Virus record (IMG/VR): IMGVR_UViG_2869924733_000010
Source: a virus
Taxonomy: Duplodnaviria; Heunggongvirae; Uroviricota; Caudoviricetes
Length of the DNA stretch: 34,465 nt
Direction: 5' to 3' (one strand)
In this document: positions 1,935 to 22,252 of the stretch, piece after piece
Layout of the letters: the number at the start of each line of letters is the position of its first letter
How positions within the stretch are numbered: the first letter of the stretch is position 1
Position numbers and translations under genes: made by a program
The notes under the pieces: model-generated
The model's input: only the letters and a program-made list of their open reading frames with translations
Database searches by the model: none
What the model was told of the DNA's origin: nothing

Positions 1935-3098
1935 TTACTCATCACCTTCTGTTTCGTACTCCACATCAGAAAGCCTGACCTCAAGCTCTAAGGACGTCGT
2001 GAAGCCGCTATTATTCAGAAAGTGTGTCACCTTAGTGATTGTCCAGTCCTGCTCGTCTATGACGCGCTTAAAACCTGACACTTTGACCGGCGTTTCCGTG
2101 TAAATATCTGCCCGACCAGTAGCCAGACTGATGGAGAACTCCGCCACGCCCCGTTGCAGCTTATCCCACTTCGCCTGAGCGGCGCGCATGGCCTGCGCTT
2201 TTGTGGCATATACCGTAGTCAGGGCAAAAACGTTATCAGCCTCACCGGCCATGTATTCACCTTCGCGCGCTTCCGGTACTTTAGGCGCTTTCTTCTGCCT
2301 GACCGGTTTCGCTTTCGGGTGCTCCGGTGCGCGCAGGTGTTTCTCTTTCTTTTTGCGTTTCAGTTTTATCTTCTGCTTTTGTGGCTTCGGGTCTTTGGTG
2401 TGTAACCACTTTGCCATTACGCCGGTGTAGGCTCCACGGTCAGCAATCGCAAAATGATGACGGTCGCCGTCGCTGCGGGTGATGGTAATCTGCGGGATTT
2501 TTTTACCGCTGGCCGTCACCCCCTGCCCCGCTTTGAGAAACAGCAGTTTTCCCATTTTTACCGACACCTCACCGCCGTTGCGTTCAGCAAGGCGGGTCAG
2601 GAATTTCGCATCAGACTCCTGCGACTGGTCGATGTGCGGAATTTTAATTCCGGCCAGTGACGGAGCGACACTGGCTTCCAGCCTGTTCCGGGAGGCTATC
2701 GCCTCAACAATCGCACCGAGCGTGGTGTCATGCCATGAGCCTTCCCGGCGGGAATTGAGCGTCCCGCGAAAATCTGCACTCCGGGCGCGGATGGTGACCA
2801 CATCCGGTGCGCCCCGGTGTTCAACCTCATCAACGGTAAATTTCCCTTTGCATACCAGGGCAAAACCTTTCCAGCCGATATACACCGTCAGGACAGCGCC
2901 ACGAACCGGCAGCCCGACCTGCCCGTCGGCATCGTTCAGTTCAATATCAAGCTGGTCAGCCTCAAAGCCCCGGTTATCCGTCAGGGTCATGCTCATCAGA
3001 CGGTCGCTGATATTGCCGGTAATATCCCTGCTGTCGAGCATCAGCATGTAATCCGGCGTCAGCGTACTGCCTGCATCAAATGTCAGCGCATCCAGCAT
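1935..3098 (-). CDS. D: P2 gpD tail protein
   Basis: 387 aa, sequence and length match P2 gpD. Confidence 0.85.
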   Translation of the reverse strand: MLDALTFDAGSTLTPDYMLMLDSRDITGNISDRLMSMTLTDNRGFEADQLDIELNDADGQVGLPVRGAVLTVYIGWKGFALVCKGKFTVDEVEHRGAPDVVTIRARSADFRGTLNSRREGSWHDTTLGAIVEAIASRNRLEASVAPSLAGIKIPHIDQSQESDAKFLTRLAERNGGEVSVKMGKLLFLKAGQGVTASGKKIPQITITRSDGDRHHFAIADRGAYTGVMAKWLHTKDPKPQKQKIKLKRKKKEKHLRAPEHPKAKPVRQKKAPKVPEAREGEYMAGEADNVFALTTVYATKAQAMRAAQAKWDKLQRGVAEFSISLATGRADIYTETPVKVSGFKRVIDEQDWTITKVTHFLNNSGFTTSLELEVRLSDVEYETEGDE

Positions 3099-3577
3099 TA
3101 TCCCGCCCCCGTCATACCCGTGAATTTAGTCGCCATACTGCCAGCCTTACCGATGAGCGATTCCGCCTGTTTACCGATATCGCCATAAAGCGCGGCCAGT
3201 GACTCATCAACGCGGGTGAGCGACAGCGTAAAATCAATTTTCCGGGGTGTGCCGTCTGCAAAGAAAATACTCCCTGTTTCACTCACCTTGCTGATGACAT
3301 ACATGTCGTAAATCATGCCGGTGCCATCCAGCAACGGCCACGCCCGGCCTTCCTCTGCCATCAGTCTGAGCGTGGTCATCGTCAGCTTTCCGCCAGTCAG
3401 TTCGGGATAAAGCACACCGGCAAGTGTGATGTTCTCCTCACCTACACCGAGAAACTGATAGGCATCCCGTTTACCGATACGGGAATTTGACGGCCAGCGA
3501 TAATCTGATTCACGCTGCATGGTCTGATGTGGCAGCGTCTGGCGCATAAAAACAAACATACCTAACGCGAGCATCAT
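3098..3577 (-). CDS. U: P2 gpU tail protein
   Basis: 159 aa, matches P2 gpU. Confidence 0.85.
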   Translation of the reverse strand: MMLALGMFVFMRQTLPHQTMQRESDYRWPSNSRIGKRDAYQFLGVGEENITLAGVLYPELTGGKLTMTTLRLMAEEGRAWPLLDGTGMIYDMYVISKVSETGSIFFADGTPRKIDFTLSLTRVDESLAALYGDIGKQAESLIGKAGSMATKFTGMTGAG

Positions 3578-7044: not shown

Positions 7045-8235
7045 TTAATTGCTGTTAACCGAGGTGACCAGATTTGCCTGGTATTTATCGGTAATACGCT
7101 GGCGCAGGGTCAGGTTTTCGAGAGGAGGCACCGGTGTATAGTCGTAGTCGATATACAGTTTTCCGGCCTTGAGGGTTTCCGCATCGTTGGATTCTTCGCT
7201 GAACCAGCAGGTCGCATCCACGATATAGCCGTTTGTTTTCAGCTCACGGAATTTGGCATTGATGCCGTCAACGATGTCGCGAATCAGCGTTGCGGTGATG
7301 GGCTTGTCCACCGCCCACATGTGCGCCTCAGCCATCGTGTCGGCCAGCACCTGCGCGGTGCGGGTGTAGTTTTCAAAGAGGAACAGCGGGTCATCAGAGC
7401 AGGTACGGTTACCCCAGAAGCGGAAACCGTCACGGCGAATCAGCGTTGTGACGCCTGACTCGTTAAGCAGGTCAGCATCGGTGCCGGACTCCTGCAAATC
7501 CCAGAATACGGACGCGCTGATGCCGGTAACACCGTTCACCCCGACGTTGGACAGCGTTTTATGCCAGCCCTGCTCCTGGTCGATTTTAGCGCGCAGCCCC
7601 AGCGCACGGGCGGTGGCATACGCGGTGGAGGTGGTACTGGTGACCGTATCCCATGCGAGGAAATCCGGCCAGATGACCATCAGCTCACGCTGGCTGAAAT
7701 TCTGGCGGTAGGCTTTCACCTCGGAAATGGTTTTACAGCCCCATGCGCTGATATACCCGAAAGCGCGCAGCTTCTGACAGACTGATGCCAGTGCAACAGC
7801 CACCTCTTTGGTATCCAGTCCCGGCACACCGAGAATGCGCGGTTTAACACCGGTTACCGACTCCGCCGCCAGCAGGGCTTTCAGTCCGGTGTACTGACCG
7901 TTTTCGTCGGTGGTGCCGATGATATTGGAAACGGTCTGCGCGAGCTTCGTTTCTTCGTCGTCGCCGGTGCCGTCTTCCACGCGCACAACAACGGTGACCG
8001 GTTTTGACTGGTCAGCGATGGCCTGTAACGACGCCGCCAGCGTGCCTTTTTTACCGGCCTTTGCAATTGCGCTCTGCACATTGGTAATCAGCACCGGTTT
8101 ATTGAGGGGGAAGGTTTCCGCATCTGCATCGCTGGCCGTGCAGACCATGCCGACAATGGCCGTGGATACGGTGGAAATGACGCGGGTGCCGTCGTTAATC
8201 TCCAGCACCTGCACGCCGTGATGATAGTCACTCAT
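7045..8235 (-). CDS. FI: P2 gpFI tail sheath
   Basis: 396 aa, matches P2 FI. Confidence 0.9.
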   Translation of the reverse strand: MSDYHHGVQVLEINDGTRVISTVSTAIVGMVCTASDADAETFPLNKPVLITNVQSAIAKAGKKGTLAASLQAIADQSKPVTVVVRVEDGTGDDEETKLAQTVSNIIGTTDENGQYTGLKALLAAESVTGVKPRILGVPGLDTKEVAVALASVCQKLRAFGYISAWGCKTISEVKAYRQNFSQRELMVIWPDFLAWDTVTSTTSTAYATARALGLRAKIDQEQGWHKTLSNVGVNGVTGISASVFWDLQESGTDADLLNESGVTTLIRRDGFRFWGNRTCSDDPLFLFENYTRTAQVLADTMAEAHMWAVDKPITATLIRDIVDGINAKFRELKTNGYIVDATCWFSEESNDAETLKAGKLYIDYDYTPVPPLENLTLRQRITDKYQANLVTSVNSN

Positions 8236-8427: not shown

Positions 8428-8458
8428 GTCTGCTTTGAGCGAGGAGCGGACATTGAGC
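8428..8458 (+). repeat. Copy Z of a ~30 bp conserved motif (core TGA-N11-ACA)
   Basis: gtctgctttgagcgaggagcggacattgagc resembles the minus-strand copies at 14100..14135 and 18095..18130. Confidence 0.5.
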
Positions 8459-8531: not shown

Positions 8532-9684
8532 AATAGCTGCGCGGAATAGTAGATCATTTTGAGGGAACTTAGCCCGGATTGTGCGATCTGATCAATCGCC
8601 AAATCAAAACAAATCACCAACCGGACTGAGCAATGCCGATCATAGCACCAATTTCCCGTGACGAACGACGCCTGATGCAGAAAGCCATCCATAAAACACA
8701 CGATAAAAATTATGCCCGCAGACTGACTGCCATGCTGATGCTGCACCGGGGCGACCGTGTCAGCGACGTTGCCAGAACGCTCTGCTGCGCCCGTTCCTCT
8801 GTTGGACGCTGGATTAACTGGTTCACGCAGTCGGGTGTTGAGGGACTGAAATCATTACCTGCCGGGCGTGCCCGTCGCTGGCCGTTTGAGCATATCTGCA
8901 CACTGTTACGTGAGCTGGTAAAACATTCTCCCGGCGACTTTGGCTACCAGCGTTCACGCTGGAGTACAGAACTGCTGGCAATAAAAATCAATGAGATAAC
9001 CGGTTGCCAGTTAAATGCCGGAACCGTTCGCCGCTGGTTGCCGTCTGCGGGGATTGTGTGGCGAAGGGCTGCGCCAACTCTGCGTATCCGTGACCCGCAT
9101 AAAGATGAAAAGATGGCAGCAATCCATAAAGCACTGGACGAATGCAGCGCAGAGCATCCGGTCTTTTATGAAGATGAAGTGGATATCCATCTTCATCCCA
9201 AAATCGGTGCGGACTGGCAACTGCGCGGACAGCAAAAACGGGTGGTCACGCCGGGACAGAATGAAAAATATTATCTGGCCGGAGCGCTGCACAGCGGGAC
9301 AGGTAAAGTCAGCTATGTGGGCGGCAACAGCAAAAGTTCGGCGCTGTTCATCAGCCTGCTGAAGCGGCTTAAAGCGACATACCGTCGGGCGAAAACCATC
9401 ACGCTGATCGTGGACAACTACATTATCCACAAAAGCCGGGAAACACAGAGCTGGCTGAAGGAGAACCCGAAGTTCAGGGTCATTTATCAGCCGGTTTACT
9501 CGCCATGGGTGAATCATGTTGAACGGCTATGGCAGGCACTTCACGACACAATAACGCGTAATCATCAGTGCCGCTCAATGTGGCAACTGTTGAAAAAAGT
9601 TCGCCATTTTATGGAAACCGTCAGCCCATTCCCCGGAGGCAAACATGGACTGGCAAAAGTGTAGCGGTATTAAGCGCAGCTATT
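8532..9684 (+). mobile_element. IS630, complete (1153 bp), TA target duplication in a CTAG context
   Basis: Terminal inverted repeats aatagctgcgc / gcgcagctatt; TA at 8530..8531 and 9685..9686; reconstructed target gaccTAggat. Confidence 0.85.
8633..9664 (+). CDS. IS630 transposase (DDE, Tc1/IS630 family)
   Basis: 343 aa ORF recognised as IS630-family transposase. Confidence 0.85.
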   Translation: MPIIAPISRDERRLMQKAIHKTHDKNYARRLTAMLMLHRGDRVSDVARTLCCARSSVGRWINWFTQSGVEGLKSLPAGRARRWPFEHICTLLRELVKHSPGDFGYQRSRWSTELLAIKINEITGCQLNAGTVRRWLPSAGIVWRRAAPTLRIRDPHKDEKMAAIHKALDECSAEHPVFYEDEVDIHLHPKIGADWQLRGQQKRVVTPGQNEKYYLAGALHSGTGKVSYVGGNSKSSALFISLLKRLKATYRRAKTITLIVDNYIIHKSRETQSWLKENPKFRVIYQPVYSPWVNHVERLWQALHDTITRNHQCRSMWQLLKKVRHFMETVSPFPGGKHGLAKV

Positions 9685-9755: not shown

Positions 9756-10332
9756 ATGACCAAGACAAATAGGCACAACTTTCCTCCAAGCGTTGTAGGT
9801 AAGGTAGCAGAGCGCGCTACATATATTTGTAGCAATCCCTCTTGTCATAGGGTAACAATCGGCCCGGATCAATTGGCGGAAAATCTTTCTATCAAGACGG
9901 GTGAGGCGGCGCATATCTGCGCGGCGAGCCCTGGCGGACCGCGCTATGACATGTCTCAGTCAGAAACAGAGCGGAAGAGCATAAAAAATGCTATATGGTT
10001 GTGCGGAGCTTGTGCTGATTTAGTTGATAAGAATGGCGGTATGGGCTACCCCGCCGAGTATTTGCGAAAATGGAAACGTGACCACGAATCACTAATGAAG
10101 GAGTGCTTGGAGGGAGGAAAGAGGCTAATGTTTCAATTTCTATCGCATCGCCCAGACGAGAAAATTGCTCTGCGGTTGATCCATTTATTGGAAGACAAGA
10201 GTTCTCTTTATCTGCCATATGCTCAAGAGGATCCAGCACGAGTCTCGGATTCTTTGAAGGAGCTCCGACTCTCTCTTACGGCGATTCGCTCCGAGATTGC
10301 ACCTGAGTCTCCGCTATCGTTGATCGTCGAGT
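9756..10332 (+). pseudogene. 5' part (codons 1..192) of an HNH-like zinc-finger protein gene, interrupted by IS911
   Basis: CSNPSCH ... AAHICAASPGGPRYD ... NAIWLCGACADLVDKN matches the HNH pattern CxxC..H..N..CxxC with the last His replaced by Ala; the ORF tail after residue 192 is IS911 sequence. Confidence 0.6.
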
Positions 10333-10667
10333 TGAAGTGGCACACTGAATTTGGCCACCTGAACAGAGGTGATATGCTCACCTCAGAACAACACAGGTGC
10401 TCCAATGAAAAAAAGAAATTTTAGCGCAGAGTTTAAACGCGAATCCGCTCAACTGGTTGTTGACCAGAAATACACGGTGGCAGATGCCGCCAAAGCTATG
10501 GATGTTGGCCTTTCCACAATGACAAGATGGGTCAAACAACTGCGTGATGAGCGTCAGGGCAAAACACCAAAAGCCTCTCCGATAACACCAGAACAAATCG
10601 AAATACGTAAGCTGAGGAAAAAGCTACAACGCATTGAAATGGAGAATGAAATATTAAAAAAGGCTAC

Positions 10668-12796
<2,129 letters not shown>

Positions 12797-13930: not shown

Positions 13931-14099
13931 AACTCAAATCCCTCTTTTTTATATCCTAAATGGAATACAAAAATTATTGTTTATTTGTTATGTTCAATAT
14001 ACTCACATAACCGAAAACTTTAACACGCTCATTCTAAGTGAACTAAATCTAAAGATATACCTTTGAAAACTGAAAACTCAATGCTGGCAACGTCCGCTC

Positions 14100-14135
14100 C
14101 TGGCACAAAGCGAACATTCCTTGACGTCCTGTCAG
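14100..14135 (-). repeat. Copy X of the ~30 bp conserved motif (core TGT-N11-ACG), ~190 nt upstream of the 261 aa ORF
   Basis: 28 of 35 positions identical to the copy at 18095..18130. Confidence 0.55.
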
Positions 14136-14200: not shown

Positions 14201-15501
14201 CTGAGGAATTCCCAGAAAACGAGACAGACATAGCATTATGTGATCTACTGATTTGTGCCAACAATTCAATGAGATCACTGCTATGCCTGTTCATAAAGTA
14301 TGTCAGAATTTCTTCCGGGATGCCTTAGCACCATTTCATCAGTACCGACAAAATGCCCTGATGGATGCCACAGTGGCGTTAATCAACGGAGCATCTCTGA
14401 CGCTGACCAGTATCGGACGTTTTTTCCCGGGTAATGCACAAGTTAAGAATAAGAGCAAACGTATTGATCGCCTCATGGGTAATGAGGCGCTCCATCGCGA
14501 TATTCCAATGATTTTCAGGAATATCACTTCAATGCTGACACGGCAGTTATCTTTATGTGTAATAGCCGTAGACTGGAGTGGCTATCCCTCCCAGGAGCAT
14601 CATGTTCTTCGTGCCAGCCTTCTGTGTGACGGGCGTTCCATTCCGTTATTGAGTAAGGTTGTTCCTTCTGAAAAACAAAATAATCCATTGATACAACATG
14701 ATTTCCTTGATTCCCTTGCTCAATCCCTGCCCCCCGATGCCAGGGTTATTATTGTCACGGATGCTGGATTTCAGAGCGCATGGTTTCACCATATTACTTC
14801 TCTGGGCTGGGATTTTATTGGTCGGATCAGAAATAACGTTCAGTATTGCCTCGATAACGCGCCTGAAAGATGGTTAAAAGTGTCGGATAGCCCTGAATGT
14901 AAAACACCGGAATATATGGGGGCTGGAAGGCTGGTTAAAGAAAGGAAAAAAAGCATCCGGGGGCATTTTTACACCTATAAGAAATCGGCAAAAGGGCGAA
15001 AAAAGAAACGTTCGAAAGGTCAGAGTGGTTTAAACAAAACAGACAAAGAACAGAGCAAATCAGCAAAAGAAGCCTGGTTGATCTTCAGCAGTACAAATGA
15101 CTTCAGAGCGCGAGAAATCATCAAGTTATACAGTCGGCGAATGCAGATAGAGCAAAACTTTCGTGATGAAAAGAACGGGCGCTTCGGATTTGGTCTTCGG
15201 GCCAGCAAAAGTCGTTCAACAGGAAGAATTCTGGTTCTGAGTCTGCTGGCAACGTTGAGCACTATCGTAATGTGGTTACTCGGTTATCACGCTGAAAATA
15301 AAGGGTTACACCTGAAATATCAGGCTAACAGCATTAAATCCCGGCGGGTTATCTCATATCTGACGTTAGCGAAGAATGTTCTTCGACACTCGCCACTTAT
15401 TTTAAGACGAACAGTACTGAGCACAGTTCTAAACCATCTGTCCAGAACCTACCGAAATATGGTGCTGGTTTATTAGCAGTAATTTTGTGGGGATCCCTCA
15501 G
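14201..15501 (+). mobile_element. IS10-like element (IS4 family), 9 bp duplication CCCGGAGGG
   Basis: Ends CTGAGGAATTCCCA / CTGAGGGATCCCCA (inverted); duplication at 14192..14200 and 15502..15510. Confidence 0.8.
14253..15476 (+). CDS. IS10-like transposase
   Basis: 407 aa; KRIDRLMGN, VTDAGFQSAWF and YSRRMQIEQNFRDEK align with IS10 transposase. Confidence 0.8.
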   Translation: MCQQFNEITAMPVHKVCQNFFRDALAPFHQYRQNALMDATVALINGASLTLTSIGRFFPGNAQVKNKSKRIDRLMGNEALHRDIPMIFRNITSMLTRQLSLCVIAVDWSGYPSQEHHVLRASLLCDGRSIPLLSKVVPSEKQNNPLIQHDFLDSLAQSLPPDARVIIVTDAGFQSAWFHHITSLGWDFIGRIRNNVQYCLDNAPERWLKVSDSPECKTPEYMGAGRLVKERKKSIRGHFYTYKKSAKGRKKKRSKGQSGLNKTDKEQSKSAKEAWLIFSSTNDFRAREIIKLYSRRMQIEQNFRDEKNGRFGFGLRASKSRSTGRILVLSLLATLSTIVMWLLGYHAENKGLHLKYQANSIKSRRVISYLTLAKNVLRHSPLILRRTVLSTVLNHLSRTYRNMVLVY

Positions 15502-15659
15502 CCCGGAGGGACGGCTATAAACTCGCCAGTTAACAAGCTGATTTTACCGCTTACGCGGTTCTGTCGTTGCGGTGTTCGCTGACCCACTGCGCCTTTACAG
15601 TTTATCGCTTATGAATCCATGAGCCTTAAATGTCCTGACAAAATCCTCATAGCGCGCAA

Positions 15660-16277
15660 TCATCCCCCCGATGTTTCACGCACATTTTGCTGATGAAAGC
15701 GGAAGTTTGCCTCCGATTCAACACTCTTACTCTTCCAGTCATGGGGAAGGCTTAGCATCACTGGCTTTCTGTTCGGGTAATCAACACTCATAAATGGTAG
15801 CGTACTATCTACGTATGCGGTCATAGCGTCCAAAAAAGCGTCTTTCGCACCATTCACTTCAGTATTGAATAACCGATACTTTTCACCGCTAAATTTTTCA
15901 GCTTTTTCAATGTTTAAGCAAACATCTTGCCGTATACCGCTCAGGTAGCTCTGCTCAACCCATTGAGTAGTATCCTCATAAGGCAGCAATTCAAGGATCT
16001 GGTCGATTATCTTCAGATCATGTTCATCTTGCTTTTTTTTTACAGGGTCCTCAGTAGATTCATTGGATGTGTGGTAAACGTTGGTGGTCTGATTAATATC
16101 CCGCCCGGCCTGGTTCACATCACCCTCGGTTTTCTTTGCCTTCTGTTTTATGTTGTTTTGCTGTCTGATTCTATATGTAACACCGCCCCCAATACCAAAC
16201 AGTGCCAGTACGCCGACTAATAAGCTAAGATAGGTAGCTGCGTCTGCACCAAAATGTGCATTAAGCCATTCAGTCAT
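15660..16277 (-). CDS. Hypothetical membrane-anchored protein, 205 aa (N-terminal TM helix), cargo gene
   Basis: Hydrophobic segment YLSLLVGVLALFGIGGGV then a polar ~170 aa domain; stop codon sits directly on a G6 run, so the 3' end is uncertain. Confidence 0.55.
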   Translation of the reverse strand: MTEWLNAHFGADAATYLSLLVGVLALFGIGGGVTYRIRQQNNIKQKAKKTEGDVNQAGRDINQTTNVYHTSNESTEDPVKKKQDEHDLKIIDQILELLPYEDTTQWVEQSYLSGIRQDVCLNIEKAEKFSGEKYRLFNTEVNGAKDAFLDAMTAYVDSTLPFMSVDYPNRKPVMLSLPHDWKSKSVESEANFRFHQQNVRETSGG

Positions 16278-16363
16278 TTGAACTATGTCCTTACAGTGTG
16301 AGTAAGGATTATAATAACAGAGCTAACTTGCGCAGAAACGAAAAAAGGCAGGTGGATTTGCCC

Positions 16364-17269
16364 CTATATTTCCAGACATCTGTTATCACTTAACCCATTA
16401 CAAGCCCGCTGCCGCAGATATTCCCGTGGCGAGCGATAACCCAGCGCACTATGCGGATGCCATTCGTTATAATGCTCGAACGCCTCTGCAAGGTTCTTTG
16501 CTGCCGTTAACCCGTCTGGTTTGGGCATGATACTGATGTAGTCACGCTTTATCGTTTTCACGAAGCTCTCTGCTATTCCGTTACTCTCCGGACTCCGCAC
16601 CGCCGTGTTCTTCGGTTCAAGTCCCAACATCCGGGCGAACTGGCGTGTTTCATTAGCCCGGTAGCATGAACCATTATCCGTCAGCCACTCCACTGGAGAC
16701 GACGGAAGATCGTTGCCGAAGCGGCGTTCCACCGCTCCCAGCATGACGTCCTGTACTGTTTCACTGTTGAAGCCGCCGGTAGTCACCGCCCAGTGCAGTG
16801 CCTCACGATCACAGCAGTCCAGCGCGAACGTGACACGCAGTCTCTCTCCGTTATCACAGCAGAACTCGAACCCGTCAGAGCACCATCGCTGATTGCTTTC
16901 TTTCACGGCCACTCTGCCTGTATGTGCCCGTTTCGATGGCGGTACAGCAGGTTTTCGCTCAAGCAACAGCGCATTCTGGCGCATGATCCGGTAAACACGT
17001 TTGGCATTGTTCGCAGGCATACCATCAAGTTCTGCCTGTCTGCGAAGCAGCGCCCATACCCGACGATAACCATACGTGGGCAGCTCTCCGATAACATGGT
17101 GTATACGGAGAAGCACATCCGTATCATCAGTGTGACGACTGCGGCGGCCATCCATCCAGTCATCGGTTCGTCTGAGAATGACGTGCAACTGCGCACGCGA
17201 CACCCGGAGACAACGGCTGACTAAGCTTACTCCCCATCCCCGGGCAATAAGGGCGCGTGCGCTATCCAC
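16364..17269 (-). CDS. insD: IS2 transposase InsD
   Basis: 301 aa, recognised as IS2 InsD. Confidence 0.9.
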
Positions 17270-17592
17270 TTTTTTGCCCGTCCATATTCAACGGCTTCTT
17301 TGAGGAGTTCATTTTCCATCGTTTTCTTGCCGAGCAGGCGCTGGAGTTCTTTAATCTGCTTCATGGCGGCAGCAAGTTCAGAGGCAGGAACAACCTGTTC
17401 TCCGGCGGCCACAGCAGTAAGACTTCCTTCCTGGTATTGCTTACGCCAGAGAAATAACTGGCTGGCTGCTACACCATGTTGCCGGGCAACGAGGGAGACC
17501 GTCATCCCCGGTTCAAAGCTCTGCTGAACAATTGCGATCTTTTCCTGTGTGGTACGCCGTCTGCGTTTCTCCGGCCCTAAGACATCAATCAT
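17227..17592 (-). CDS. insC: IS2 InsC
   Basis: 121 aa from internal Met [13 protein letters not shown]. Confidence 0.85.
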
Positions 17593-18094
17593 CTGTACTC
17601 CAATGACTAGTCTAAAAACTAGTATTAAGACTATCACTTATTTAAGTGATACTGGTTGTCTGGAGATTCAGGGGGCCAGTCTAGCAGGGGAGGTAACCCC
17701 CCTGCCTTTAATCAAGTTCCTCCATCCCTTACGGGCGTCCGGTCAGTTGCTTGATGACAACCAGACCAGCTAGCATTATTTGCATCACCAGTAAGACTGT
17801 TGTTAGCGTTATCACTTCGACGTCTCCTCTTCCAGGAGAGCGCCACACGTAGTAAGTGCTTTTGGTTCTACCCGCCCCCCTCACTCCGCATACCATTAGT
17901 TAGCAGGTACAAGCAGCACTCTTTCGTGTGGTAAGCAAACAGGACAGCACTGGACTGACGCCTTGAGCTTTAATATTTCCTTCCGATCCATACAACTAGG
18001 TCTGTTAAAAGCCCCTAGGACGAATTCTACAGAGATGGCTATGGTGCAGGTTTCGGCTATAGGGCTCTTTGATGTAATCGAGGGTCATAACGTT

Positions 18095-18130
18095 GGCAAT
18101 GTCTGCTCCTGGCACAGAGCGGACTATCAG
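18095..18130 (-). repeat. Copy Y of the ~30 bp conserved motif (core TGT-N11-ACA), just downstream of the G stop
   Basis: ggcaatgtctgctcctggcacagagcggac; overlaps a 9 bp stem hairpin ggcacagag..ctctgtgcc. Confidence 0.55.
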
Positions 18131-18173
18131 ATTAGGCTTTACTCTGTGCCATAGATATGTAAGCTAATACAAC

Positions 18174-18701
18174 TTATTGCGGCATTTCCGGCCATTCAGG
18201 ATTTGCAGGATCCACACGACTGACCAGAACGCTGTAGCGTTCCCATGATTCCAGTCGGCTACGCTCCTCATCTGTTGCCATGTTCAGTCTGACCGCGCGC
18301 TCCAGCGGCAAAATCACGGATTCAGCATCTGCAAGAAGTCTGGCTTTCCGAATTTCTGCCTGCTGCTGTAATTCCTCTGCCGTATAAACGCGTTTAATCA
18401 CTTTGCCGTCCTTAAACATCCAGTTCCCTGAAATGTCCGCCCGTCGGTTAGCAGTAATATCCGCCACTTCAACAACACTTAATCCATCCGGTCTGATAGC
18501 TGTCACATCCTTTTCCACATAGTGGATGATATTATCTTTGTCGTACGCTATTTTTATCGTGTCATCAGCAAAATACTTTTGTTCTTCGTACCAGTTCTTA
18601 CCATCTTCTGAAAAAAACCAGACAACATCAAAGTCCTTTGTCAATTGATATTGTTCAACCGTTTTTGGATTACCCGCCGTAATATTTTTTAAATGCTGCA
18701 T
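18174..18701 (-). CDS. G: P2 gpG tail fibre assembly protein
   Basis: 175 aa, matches P2 G. Confidence 0.85.
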
Positions 18702-18704
18702 AAA

Positions 18705-20810
18705 TTATACCTGCACCACGTTATACCATGTCCCGTTAATGTATTTCTGCACCGGTCTGTAATATACGCCACCAATGTTATCGGCAGAGTTTGAGCCGGT
18801 ATCCTGAACAATAATGCCGGTATATACGCAACCTGACGGAGCCTGATGCGTCCATGTAGTACCATTATTTGCTGGTTTATATGTAGATGCACCGCCCAGC
18901 CGCATGTCTCTCACATAACGTGAATCTGACTCAGTTTTGGTGTATGCACCAACATCTCCCGCTGAGGGTTTATGAGCAGTTGTATATAGTTGCGCCCATC
19001 CAGACCAGTTAGCATCTGTGGTATCTCGTCGGGAACGAATATATGCCGGAGCATGAGCACCGCTGGTTCCACTCCAACCAATAAGTAACTCACCCTCTCC
19101 TACTGCGGTTACGCCAGTGAGATGAAGCACATTACCATAGGCTGTTGGGTAGCCATTGTTGTATGCCTCATACATCTGAATACCTGGTGTCCCCTTTACG
19201 CTCCCACCTAATGCAGTAACACGGTTTCTGGATACCAGTGTATTAATATTTATATCGGCAGAGCCATCAAATCTGACACCATTAATATTTCTTGCGTTCG
19301 CTAACTTCGTTGCTGTTGCAGCATTTCCTGAAAGGCTGGAAATAAATGGATGTGAACAGTAATAACCACGTCCATTTTTAAAATCCAGAATAGCCTGTGC
19401 GTTCGTGCTTTCTGTAGCGGGATTAGTTGCCCCCCACTTATATGTCGTTTGACCGACGACATAATCCTCTGTCGGAACAATAACCGTTAGCCCTTCCTCT
19501 GCAAGAATTTGTACAGGGAAAGCTCTGGCTTCAACATAAAAAACACTACATACATCATCATCTTTCAGGCTTGTAACAATGGAATGGATTGAACGCTCAT
19601 TAGTCTGATACGTCCAGTAATAACCTGCCGCATATGAACCACGATCAGTCCAGCCTCCGGGCATAACCATGCCATTAAACTCGCAGTTATTCATTACATA
19701 ATCGCCGTTATAACAACCAGTGGAAATAACAACGCGGGATGCCATTTCTCCTGAAAGGCTGGCAGCACGGCGAAAGATAACGGGGTACCACTTCCCGGCA
19801 ACGACATTTGCAGGGGCTGCAAACGAATACTTTCGCATTCCCTTTTTCTTATCCACTTCACCTTTGCTGTAAACATTAATGTTACTCAGGAAGCGTTCTT
19901 TATCAGGGATATCCGCACCGTTCTGATCTTTCTGAAGACGTTTTTCAGCATTGTCATAGGCAGACTTCACCGCCTTTGGCGTTGCAGCCTGCGTTTCAGA
20001 ATCACTGTTGGTGGCGCTACTGAGCTGAACAAGGCCTTTTCGCGCTGTTGTGGCATCCTGTGCAGTGTATTTCCCGTTAGCAAGGTCATATGCTTTCGGC
20101 GTTGCGGCGAGCGTTTCAGACGTGCTGTTAGTCGCACTACTGAGCTGAACAAGGCCTTTTCGCGCGGTGGTGGCATCCTGCGCGGTATATTTCCCGTTAG
20201 CAAGGTCATAGGCGGTCTTTACCGCTCTCGGCGTTGCAGCCAGTGTTTCAGACATGCTGTTGGTCGCACTGCTTAACTGAGTAAAACCTTTTGCGGTCAG
20301 CGAGGCGTCCGGGTGACGTCGTGACTGTTCGTGCTCTGCAATTTTGTCATCAACGTAATCCTGCGTCGCCATCACCGTTGTGGTGTCAATGGTCAGCTCC
20401 ACTGAGGCCACACTGCTGACGATGATGACCATACGGCAGGTCTGCGAACGCCCTGAGCCTTCGGCAAGAGCTGGCTTATAACTTTCGGCCATGTTCGCCA
20501 CGGCAATTAACGTTCCCGCATCATCGTACAGGCCAAGCTCACGCATCCAGAAACCGCCCACCTCCGGCGGAATAACCAGCTCTGCGATAATATAATTACT
20601 GTTTCGTTTGTCTTGGCTGATTTTGTTCAGCGCATGTCGCCAGACTTCATGGATAAGCCCGGTCTGTCCGGCATCCGGGACAGGCAATTTACCACCGCCA
20701 TCCCCGACGGCCATCGTGGTAATGTTGACCTTCCGCCCTCCCGGTGCGGTTGCCGCTGCCAGCTTTGCTGCACCGGCAGTGGTGATAACGGTTCTGAATT
20801 TTGTGCTCAT
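18705..20810 (-). CDS. H: P2 gpH tail fibre
   Basis: 701 aa; conserved N-terminal region and internal repeats. Confidence 0.85.
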   Translation of the reverse strand: MSTKFRTVITTAGAAKLAAATAPGGRKVNITTMAVGDGGGKLPVPDAGQTGLIHEVWRHALNKISQDKRNSNYIIAELVIPPEVGGFWMRELGLYDDAGTLIAVANMAESYKPALAEGSGRSQTCRMVIIVSSVASVELTIDTTTVMATQDYVDDKIAEHEQSRRHPDASLTAKGFTQLSSATNSMSETLAATPRAVKTAYDLANGKYTAQDATTARKGLVQLSSATNSTSETLAATPKAYDLANGKYTAQDATTARKGLVQLSSATNSDSETQAATPKAVKSAYDNAEKRLQKDQNGADIPDKERFLSNINVYSKGEVDKKKGMRKYSFAAPANVVAGKWYPVIFRRAASLSGEMASRVVISTGCYNGDYVMNNCEFNGMVMPGGWTDRGSYAAGYYWTYQTNERSIHSIVTSLKDDDVCSVFYVEARAFPVQILAEEGLTVIVPTEDYVVGQTTYKWGATNPATESTNAQAILDFKNGRGYYCSHPFISSLSGNAATATKLANARNINGVRFDGSADININTLVSRNRVTALGGSVKGTPGIQMYEAYNNGYPTAYGNVLHLTGVTAVGEGELLIGWSGTSGAHAPAYIRSRRDTTDANWSGWAQLYTTAHKPSAGDVGAYTKTESDSRYVRDMRLGGASTYKPANNGTTWTHQAPSGCVYTGIIVQDTGSNSADNIGGVYYRPVQKYINGTWYNVVQV
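19946..20297. repeat. Tandem ~120 nt coding repeats inside tail fibre gene H
   Basis: Protein segment YDLANGKYTAQDATTARKGLVQLSSATNS occurs twice in full with partial flanking copies. Confidence 0.7.
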
Positions 20811-20820
20811 TATTCCTCAC

Positions 20821-21351
20821 TTATCCGGGGTAAACCGTAATTACATCGCCGTCATAAGCCACACCACCGGCGAACAGGTAGCCGGGAATGTCCCGGGTAA
20901 TGTTCAGGCCAATAAGGTGGCGGCTTGCAGGTTTGGCATCAGCAATCAGCCGTTCCATTTCCTGATACATTGCCTCTGTGATGCCACTTTCCAGTACACC
21001 AATATCAAGCCGGAAGGTGCCCGGCGGGTCACTGGTTTCCCACCACTCCGTCACGTTGATGAGATAGCCTAGCGGCTCCACCACACGCCGGATTGCACCT
21101 ATAGTGCCTTTATGACAGTGGATGAAATAGGCATCGCGAATAACGGCGCGTTTGGTCGCTTCCGGCCACTTTTCATCCCACCTGTCGACCGAAAACGCCC
21201 ACGCCAGCCACGGCAGCAGATTTGCCGGGCAGGTGTCCGGGTTCCACAGCTCACGAATACTGACCGGTGTTTTTTCAATTTCCGCACAGGCTTTTGCGGC
21301 GGCGACTTCAAGCGGTGATGAGCCGGTCGGCAGCAGTCGCGAATCACTCAT
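20821..21351 (-). CDS. I: P2 gpI baseplate protein
   Basis: 176 aa. Confidence 0.85.
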   Translation of the reverse strand: MSDSRLLPTGSSPLEVAAAKACAEIEKTPVSIRELWNPDTCPANLLPWLAWAFSVDRWDEKWPEATKRAVIRDAYFIHCHKGTIGAIRRVVEPLGYLINVTEWWETSDPPGTFRLDIGVLESGITEAMYQEMERLIADAKPASRHLIGLNITRDIPGYLFAGGVAYDGDVITVYPG

Positions 21352-22252
21352 CCGAGCCTCCGGTCACGACGCGGTATTCAGTACAGAAAGACGCCTGCGT
21401 ACTGTTGAGCACGATGTCAGCCAGCGGTGCAGTCAGTTCGACACGCTGCACGCCTTCCACATGCAAAGCGGCATAAATGGCAGACAGACGGATGTCGCGC
21501 CCCAGCCGGTGCTGTGCCGTGATGTACGCTTCCAGTTTTTTCACGGCAGCAGCGCGGATGGGTTCGCTTTCGGGACCTGGGTAAAGGTAAAGTGTGGCGT
21601 TTATCTGATATTCAACAATGGCGGCAGACTGCACGGTCACGCGGTCGGCCACCGGCCTGACGTCCTCGCCATTAAGGGCGTTACGCACCACGGCCAGCAG
21701 GTCTTCGGATGCGACGCCGTTATTTTCACGTGACAGCACGGAGATAGTGACGCAGGCCGGAGACGGACTGGTGACAGAGATATCCGCGACACGCCCGTCA
21801 GCACTGCGACCATGATACTGATAGGCTCCCACCGACCCGGCGACGCTTAAGCCTTCAAACGCCTGCTGAATACGCAGACGATAATCCGTGTCAGACTCCA
21901 TCACTGCCGGTGTCGGCGGGATAGTCGAATCATCTGCCGGGGTGATAGTCAGACGCGTGGTGTTGTAATTGGCACCAATCACATCAAGGTCATTACCGGC
22001 GGCACAGGCCAGCATCACCGCCCGTGCGGCCTCATTCACACGCTGACGCCAGATAAGCTCACGATAAGCATTTTCCTCCAGCAGTTTGACGAGAGGCTCA
22101 GATTCCAGCGTCAGGGGACGGGCGACCGCCTCCTGCTGGTCTTCCGGGTAAAGGGAAATCAGTGTCGCCTTGCGTTCGGCGAGAATGGTTTCAAAGTCCA
22201 GCTCCTCGACCACATCCGGTGCGGGTAGCTGGTTCAGGTCGATAATCGGCAT
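21344..22252 (-). CDS. J: P2 gpJ baseplate protein
   Basis: 302 aa. Confidence 0.85.
   Translation of the reverse strand: MPIIDLNQLPAPDVVEELDFETILAERKATLISLYPEDQQEAVARPLTLESEPLVKLLEENAYRELIWRQRVNEAARAVMLACAAGNDLDVIGANYNTTRLTITPADDSTIPPTPAVMESDTDYRLRIQQAFEGLSVAGSVGAYQYHGRSADGRVADISVTSPSPACVTISVLSRENNGVASEDLLAVVRNALNGEDVRPVADRVTVQSAAIVEYQINATLYLYPGPESEPIRAAAVKKLEAYITAQHRLGRDIRLSAIYAALHVEGVQRVELTAPLADIVLNSTQASFCTEYRVVTGGSDE

Follow-up and report, generated by a model that had tools for sequence, protein, structure and literature searches.

In the type I toxin-antitoxin (TA) system tisB/istR-1, a hydrophobic single-helix peptide of about 30 amino acids (aa; TisB has 29) is encoded by an mRNA with a long 5′ untranslated region (UTR), the small RNA (sRNA) gene lies 5′ of the toxin gene, divergent from it and not overlapping it, and ~21 nucleotides (nt) of complementarity fall in the leader, far upstream of a structurally sequestered ribosome-binding site (RBS) (PMC4147584, PMC8594479). 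The pairs zorO/orzO, shoB/ohsC and dinQ/agrB also have a divergent sRNA that is complementary to the long 5′ UTR and not to the RBS or the open reading frame (ORF) (PMC4147584, PMC8594479). Here we report on positions 17684-18173 of IMG/VR virus record IMGVR_UViG_2869924733_000010, a sequence of 34,465 nt that was analysed whole and is called the window below. The late genes of this P2-like prophage are on the minus strand of the window, and the 490-base pair (bp) stretch forms the edge, proximal to tail gene G, of the cargo hotspot between G and FI. The original prediction took it for a non-coding stretch, possibly a structured noncoding RNA (ncRNA) or the remnant of a lost cargo gene. On the minus strand we find in it the 3′ ~270 nt of a putative toxin locus, which has lost its promoter, the initial ~100 nt of its leader and its sRNA gene. 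Complete relatives on plasmids share each of the features listed above for tisB/istR-1 and, judging from their sequences, would be type I TA modules of similar layout whose peptides are presumably toxic. That organisation, which also resembles that of shoB/ohsC, of zor/orz and of dinQ/agrB, was found in the plasmid relatives only; the window keeps the sRNA target alone.

The plasmid relatives are set apart from tisB/istR-1 by sequence, in that their peptides match no Pfam or NCBIfam family and their sRNA no Rfam family, and by setting, as they have no LexA box by eye and lie on plasmids, where tisB/istR-1 is chromosomal and SOS-linked; the copy in the window in addition has no sRNA. The similarity of the peptide to TisB is marginally above that of shuffles (z 2.4). 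From zorO/orzO, shoB/ohsC and dinQ/agrB the relatives differ in both toxin and sRNA sequence, again with no match to a family model. Homology to TisB, ZorO, DinQ or ShoB was considered and rejected: scores of z 1.9-3.0 over shuffles are consistent with shared composition and helical periodicity only. None of the protein profiles for TisB, ZorO, ShoB, DinQ, Hok, Ldr and Ibs was matched, and the Rfam 15 models for IstR, OrzO, OhsC, Sok, ptaRNA1 and retron msr found nothing in either the window or the plasmid loci. Scanning the peptides against Pfam-A and NCBIfam (E <= 10) recovered no family and one chance match to an S-layer model, Rfam scans of six plasmid loci at permissive E-values gave sub-threshold chance matches only, and literature searches with the peptide, seed, target and motif strings returned no match. 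The plasmid loci look like a seemingly undescribed type I TA family with a 31-aa toxin, an sRNA of ~95 nt and at least four specificity types.

With hok/sok, including flm in the leading region of F, the plasmid relatives share a plasmid-borne small membrane toxin and a highly structured mRNA of ~300-400 nt. However, they have no Hok-like sequence and no overlapping mok-type frame, and the antisense RNA does not lie opposite the mRNA leader. The copy on plasmid Rts1 directly adjoins psiA, the position at which F carries flm.

The small ORF and its leader

On the strand transcribed from G, where the original prediction saw no ORF longer than ~30 codons, there are ORFs of 55, 44 and 36 codons, and the conserved gene is a 28-codon GTG ORF that lies inside the 55-codon frame (Table 1). 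The peptide in the window reads V/M-ITLTTVLLVMQIMLAGLVVIKQLTGRP, the typical plasmid version is MISLTTILVVLNIIHVTLQIIVAIKQLTGRP, and the product is predicted to be a hydrophobic peptide similar to type I toxins. In all loci except the degenerate L009, the GTG start follows an AGGAG/GGAG Shine-Dalgarno sequence (SD) by 7-10 nt, and the stop falls ~20 nt ahead of the terminator; the ORF of L024, counted as a second exception, was treated by hand. Across ~16 loci the peptide has 24, 28 or 31 aa (typically 31 codons in the plasmid relatives), so that indels always come in multiples of three. Variable sites in the thirteen versions of 31 codons number 23/11/22 at codon positions 1/2/3, with position 2 the most conserved, which is the pattern expected with a conserved second-position T in hydrophobic codons. 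Nonsynonymous divergence was below synonymous divergence (pN<pS) in 77 of 78 pairs, with means of 0.20 and 0.35, respectively.

Two longer frames were rejected as the product. The 55-codon ATG ORF (17729-17896) is broken by a 1-nt indel in the intact relative L003, and it has only 3 database relatives, none of them functionally named. The ORF of 84 aa that is annotated in Rts1 uses a different frame, one interrupted by stops in the other homologues. The 3′ third of the toxin ORF (17729-17770) and the short 3′ UTR (17710-17728), ATCAAGCAACTGACCGGACGCCCGTAAGGG...GGAACTTGA, are nearly invariant at the nucleotide level, synonymous sites included (alignment A1, columns 210-270), which suggests RNA-level constraint.

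The leader upstream of this ORF sequesters the SD. A local hairpin forms in all 16 distinct homologue sequences, with variation in the lower stem, and the SD is paired with a probability of 0.76-1.0. The leader fold as a whole has 96.1% of cells paired with 7 pairs changed on both sides, a result equalled by none of 500 shuffles, while slid controls reached 17-57%.

Complete plasmid loci and what the window retains

In a search of plasmids for distant relatives, query positions 1-267 (17684-17950 in the window) matched at 67-76% identity in Pantoea, Serratia, Erwinia, Mixta, Klebsiella, Providencia and Proteus, with Rts1 among the homologues, and 9 further loci came from a pattern scan that took a single genome for each species. 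Both plasmids and chromosomes of Enterobacterales carry such homologues. In every plasmid-type locus scanned, a leader segment of 21-25 nt is present twice, in direct orientation. One copy, in the leader itself, lies ~97 nt upstream of the start codon, and the other ~180-220 nt further up (~280-316 nt from that codon). There are four versions, a (GTGCTGCTTGTACCTGCTAACT), b (that of Rts1), c (AGGGTGCTGCATGTATCGACTCGTA) and d (that of Erwinia E602), and the two copies change together, with three types found in the first scan and the fourth in L024. In four of the five distinct mismatches between copies, A in the sRNA-gene copy stands opposite G in the target; these mismatches therefore become G.U pairs in RNA, with the upstream copy read from the opposite strand. 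That strand has a TTGACN-17-TAANAT promoter (TTGACC-17-TAATAT) firing into the upstream copy, beyond which a covarying stem-loop and an A-rich linker lead to a hairpin+U8 terminator. A promoter and terminator scan recovered both of these signals in the complete locus L007. The predicted sRNA is 92-95 nt long with an unstructured 5′ seed, and the predicted seed-leader duplexes have energies of -54 to -58 kcal/mol for cognate pairs versus -27 to -37 for non-cognate pairs. Extended sRNA/mRNA complementarity of the type I kind is thus present in the plasmid relatives.

Two loci from Erwinia depart from this plan. In Erwinia sp. E602, two sRNA-like genes (L024 1265-1344 and 1839-1931) flank one toxin gene with the fourth seed/target type. 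Erwinia sp. HDF1-3R (L009 2640-2800) has a broken toxin ORF and an sRNA body that was fused to the target site by a deletion between the repeat copies.

We propose that the plasmid loci would produce a long structured toxin mRNA with its SD sequestered and a divergent sRNA of ~95 nt, whose single-stranded 5′ end would pair with the 21-25 nt of leader ~97 nt upstream of the start. By analogy with the described systems, this pairing would block ribosome access and/or trigger cleavage. A switch in which sRNA binding frees an anti-SD to lock the SD was also considered; in constrained partition-function folding the SD was paired at ~1.0 with or without the target blocked, and we therefore dropped the switch for an analogy with standby-type control.

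Of this predicted system the window retains the rear leader with its target site, the hairpin over the SD, the ORF and the terminator stem. A single copy of the 22-mer target is present in the 34-kb window, as in every cassette-type locus checked, and its predicted pairing with a type-a sRNA is still -49.7 kcal/mol. A covariance model of the sRNA, run on the window with filters off, gave at best 19.3 bits (E ~0.01) and only on the antisense of the target (plus strand, 17897-17981), as compared with 27-105 bits for the sRNAs of relatives. This match arises because the antisense of the target is the sRNA seed, and an equal artefact of 20.9 bits lies opposite the target of L007. No antisense antitoxin was therefore found in the window, nor did BLAST with the sRNA and its promoter find a homologue in 5,426 complete E. 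coli genomes. There is no promoter-like site on either strand between 17600 and 18750. Upstream of ~-125 relative to the start codon, the cassette copies have no significant similarity to the plasmid loci, and the spacer at 17951-18097 is not significantly similar to the promoter/sRNA region of those loci (z <= 1.5). That the cassette upstream region is a diverged plasmid toxin promoter (TATACT to TTTAAC) was rejected on the same measure, a local alignment against shuffles.

A mosaic stretch at the edge of the G-FI hotspot

The 490 bp are made of three unrelated parts: P2 backbone (18098-18173), a cassette spacer (17951-18097) and the 3′ part of the toxin gene (17684-17950). A megablast search with the whole stretch matched 663 of the 5,426 complete E. 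coli genomes, and only 32 of these had a query coverage of at least 80%. About 630 E. coli genomes, together with 70 phage records (P2, L-413C and pro147 included), match from query position ~405/427 to 482/490 only, which in the window is ~18088/18110 to 18165/18173, the region of the hairpin after G. The remaining 32 genomes match from query position 1 to 452/464, and the majority of these copies are not in P2 prophages. The non-P2 copies sit in CP4-like islands, flanked by a gene for a 227-aa hypothetical protein and a yeeP-like GTPase gene, and then Ag43. In none of the 663 E. coli genomes listed is a feature annotated beneath the match, and among the matches listed the upstream ~150 nt have no homologue outside the cassette. 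The original idea of a remnant of lost cargo thus comes close for the 3′ ~270 nt, as the remnant of a type I TA locus, and fails for the hairpin next to G, which is P2 backbone and not cargo.

Table 1. Coordinates of the features discussed, as positions in the window.
Feature	Position	Strand	Remarks
28-codon GTG ORF with TAA stop	17729..17815	minus	encodes MITLTTVLLVMQIMLAGLVVIKQLTGRP
Retained 3′ part of putative toxin mRNA leader	17816..17950	minus	plasmid homology from ~-125 relative to start codon
SD-sequestering hairpin	17819..17844	minus	GGCG-C-UCUCCU-GGAAG-AGGAGA-CGUC; SD AGGAG at 17824-17828
Former sRNA target site	17898..17919	minus	GUGCUGCUUGUACCUGCUAACU; single copy in window; partner (sRNA gene) absent
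Terminator stem-loop	17684..17709	minus	retained without T-tract
Displaced terminator remainder	16341..16352	minus	duplicated CCTGC + CTTTTTT on far side of IS2; T-tract 16341-16347
Cassette-specific spacer	17951..18097	minus	origin unassigned; no promoter-like site
23-nt junction motif	18098..18120	plus	AATGTCTGCTCCTGGCACAGAGC
Second, direct motif copy	14089..14111	plus	other cassette end
G-distal hairpin	18110..18151	minus	10-bp perfect stem TGGCACAGAG/CTCTGTGCCA, 22-nt loop
Cassette partner gene	15660..16277	minus	within 15595-16278; 227 aa in intact copies, frameshifted to 205 aa in window
IS2	16353-17683	minus	inside terminator, splitting stem from T-tract
G	18174-18701	minus	tail gene (Caudo_TAP, 1.5e-33); 3′ end at 18174
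H	18705-20810	minus	
I	20821-21351	minus	
J	21344-22252	minus	
FI	7045-8235		sheath gene

That hairpin, foreseen just after the G stop by the original prediction, is present with a stem of 10 bp. It is not an intrinsic terminator because no T-tract follows it. In 6 P2-like phages, 7-9 of 9 pairs are retained, with one compensatory change from G-C to A-U. The G-FI (Z/fun) cargo hotspot is known from P2-like phages (PMC9122126), and our stretch fits it in standing at the G-proximal edge and in having the hairpin inside the feature annotated as "left inverted repeat" in P2-EC45/EC46. It differs in that the cargo here comes in cassettes bracketed by a 23-nt motif, and the cassette with the toxin fragment is also found outside P2, in CP4-like islands and Serratia chromosomes.

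The 23-nt motif (AAYGTCYGCTCCTGGCACARAGC) overlaps the hairpin at the hotspot junction and occurs three times in the window, at the two places given in Table 1 and at 8432-8454(-); 0 copies are expected by chance. Among P2-like phages that differ in cargo, homology breaks off precisely at the motif's outer edge. A unit of 1.36-1.42 kb that holds the 227-aa gene and the toxin fragment is enclosed by the two direct copies, and the same unit with identical bracketing recurs in the intact P2 prophage and CP4-like islands as well as on two chromosomes of Serratia and four P2-like contigs from IMG/VR (motif-bracketed cargo: window, L001-L004, L015, L017 and L027-L030). The motif looks like a recombination site or part of a cassette array. 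The text of the hotspot paper PMC13586616 contains neither "inverted repeat" nor "recombination site", and does not use "cassette" in this sense.

Three further observations concern the motif. In the CP4-like island of E. coli strain 144 (L002), a gene for a 200-aa "site-specific integrase" (2910-3512) lies directly beside a motif copy (2865-2887). In a lambda-like metagenomic contig (L031), AAATCTGACAGACCGCTCTTGCCAG at ~2785-2810 resembles the P2 G-distal loop plus motif; it lies 3′ of tail-fibre genes and ahead of a homologue of the 227-aa gene. Read in the sense of G, the motif contains CCAGGAG (18106-18112), complementary to the anti-SD CUCCUGG (17833-17839) of the toxin leader ~270 nt downstream; this may be chance, or it may offer read-through transcripts a route to free the SD.

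The 227-aa partner has an N-terminal hydrophobic segment in intact copies and no match in Pfam or PADLOC, and all 16 of its homologue clusters are unnamed. Distant homologues (46-60% identity) in four other contexts have no toxin-like locus upstream. These contexts are beside lambda-like tail-fibre genes, in an ICE-like (integrative and conjugative element-like) setting, adjacent to genes for a KAP NTPase and Abi_2, or on a plasmid, and the homologues thus occupy moron or defence-like positions. The association of toxin and 227-aa gene is therefore specific to this cassette lineage, and a functional link between the two was rejected in view of these homologues. A 227-aa gene beside the Pantoea piersonii plasmid locus was likewise set aside as coincidence, since it encodes an unrelated protein. 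The homologues in L031-L037 share a conserved region of ~70 nt upstream that ends in AAGGACACAGTTCAAATG.

E. coli cM2a (L003) has a copy of the same prophage region that is free of insertion sequences (IS). The ~10-kb hotspot of the window has at least five IS-related insertions (8633-9664, 10668-11888, 11957-12796, 14201-15501 and 16353-17683), whose kinds are a DDE_3 transposase, a 383-aa HTH_38/rve transposase with flanking 26-bp inverted repeats, an IS3-type rve ORF, a DDE_Tnp_1 element (34-nt imperfect terminal repeats, 9-bp duplication) and IS2. Beside G and IS2, the neighbours in the hotspot are the 227-aa protein and a 261-aa protein (families unassigned), the other transposases and a PDC-M68A-like gene. 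The last (9756-10424(+), annotated DUF6650) is part of the neighbouring cassette, and its product is similar at the N-terminus to nuclease effector and Shedu SduA models (E 5e-24); it has 250 aa in the intact prophage (L003 3193-3945(+)) and 222 aa in the window, where it adjoins IS insertions. The hotspot cargo is undergoing degradation.

One such event reaches our stretch. Intact relatives such as L003 have a strong intrinsic terminator (AAAGGCAGGGGGGTACCTCCCCTGCCTTTTTT, a 13-pair stem followed by T6) after the toxin ORF, and in the window IS2 is inserted in its 3′ arm, flanked by a 5-bp target duplication of CCTGC (16348-16352 and 17684-17688). This bears out the original prediction of a terminator split by IS2. 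A scan for intrinsic terminators in 17600-18750 of the window was negative because IS2 separates the stem from the T-tract.

Relic, working gene or structured RNA

We regard the toxin fragment as probably a silent, hitch-hiking relic of a type I toxin gene. Having lost the toxin promoter, the sRNA gene and the leader's first ~100 nt, the window copy is most likely not expressed on its own, and we call it a hitch-hiker because the distant homologues of its cassette partner do without a toxin locus. In intact prophages the one probable remaining role of the relic would be that of its terminator, which would stop read-through of the late operon (V-G) before the 227-aa gene. Since IS2 removed the T-tract, this role would also be lost in the window.

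Several observations weigh against a silent relic. No cassette copy seen, whether from E. coli P2 prophages, CP4-like islands, Serratia or IMG/VR contigs, has a damaged ORF, SD or hairpin, and the cassette lineage's two deletions, one of 9 nt and one of 21 nt, preserve the reading frame, which together could reflect selection on the peptide. The cassette copies are 98-99% identical, however, and so carry little information on selection, and the 21-nt deletion falls between CAGAT repeats, which makes it in frame by construction. Since no terminator separates G from the ORF either, late P2 infection probably yields a G mRNA that is extended at its 3′ end by the ORF.

These same observations, start codon included, speak for a copy that is a working gene without its antitoxin. 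Its 28-aa membrane peptide would be made from late-operon read-through or from a weak, unrecognised promoter in the islands, and would work at the membrane, in roles such as lysis timing, superinfection exclusion or abortive infection, perhaps in concert with the cassette's 227-aa protein. The place of the cassette in a hotspot beside the PDC-M68A-like candidate defence gene, and the movement of the two genes as a unit between P2 prophages, islands and Serratia, would fit such a function. Against it, the SD is predicted to be paired with a probability of ~1.0, the native 5′ leader and promoter are absent, divergent 227-aa homologues stand without the toxin locus, the cassette copies are too alike to reveal selection, and decay of the cassette is plain in the window, where IS2 splits the terminator and the 227-aa gene is frameshifted. 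We consider a working gene unlikely on this balance. We further speculate, as something of a long shot, that the P2-hotspot copy is a domesticated effector, for which 3′ extension of the late operon or RNA processing during infection would time the release of a membrane-active peptide. If true, it would serve, on its own or with the 227-aa protein, in lysis timing or against phages.

A structured ncRNA that is read from the G strand as far as the terminator, the first suggestion of the original prediction, now appears very improbable. The intact minus-strand transcript of 494 nt does fold well, with a minimum free energy (MFE) of -167.8 kcal/mol (z -2.57; 2 of 100 shuffles fold as well), and the long-range pairings CCACACG (17925-17931)/CGTGTGG (17843-17849) and AGTGCT/AGCACT exist and are both part of its MFE fold. 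Across the 16 homologues they are retained, with 84.6% paired, but without covariation, as 303 of 500 shuffles do as well, and they compete with the leader fold, which does have covariation support. Moreover, the plus strand folds nearly as well (z -2.12). The conserved part of the structure is accounted for by the small ORF, with its coding pattern of substitution, and by its leader, so that what is conserved is the leader of a small protein-coding mRNA; the ~150 nt further upstream have no homologue outside the cassette among the matches listed. No Rfam model reached threshold. The best score in 15400-18800, with the retron msr-msd models included, was 19 bits for an unrelated snoRNA model with a gathering score of 60, and none of the neighbouring hotspot ORFs scanned matched a reverse transcriptase family; on these results a retron was rejected. 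Very improbable too is a plus-strand cis-antisense RNA across 17897-17981 that replaces the lost sRNA as antitoxin: the weak covariance-model match that favors it (19.3 bits, E ~0.01) recurs as the same artefact in L007, and the plus strand has neither a promoter-like site upstream nor a terminator downstream.

An "empty" 490 bp in a P2 defence hotspot now has an anatomy, and what looked like RNA structure in it belongs to the leader of a small-protein gene that had not been annotated. Standard annotation pipelines miss these small ORFs, and in Rts1 the pipeline called the 84-aa ORF in the wrong frame. The complete loci on Enterobacterales plasmids would be of a known kind, type I TA with a divergent sRNA, in a family that we did not find described, and their natural seed/target variants suit the study of sRNA-toxin specificity and standby-type control. 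The motif-delimited cassette common to P2 prophages, CP4-like islands and Serratia gives a testable handle on the exchange of hotspot cargo.

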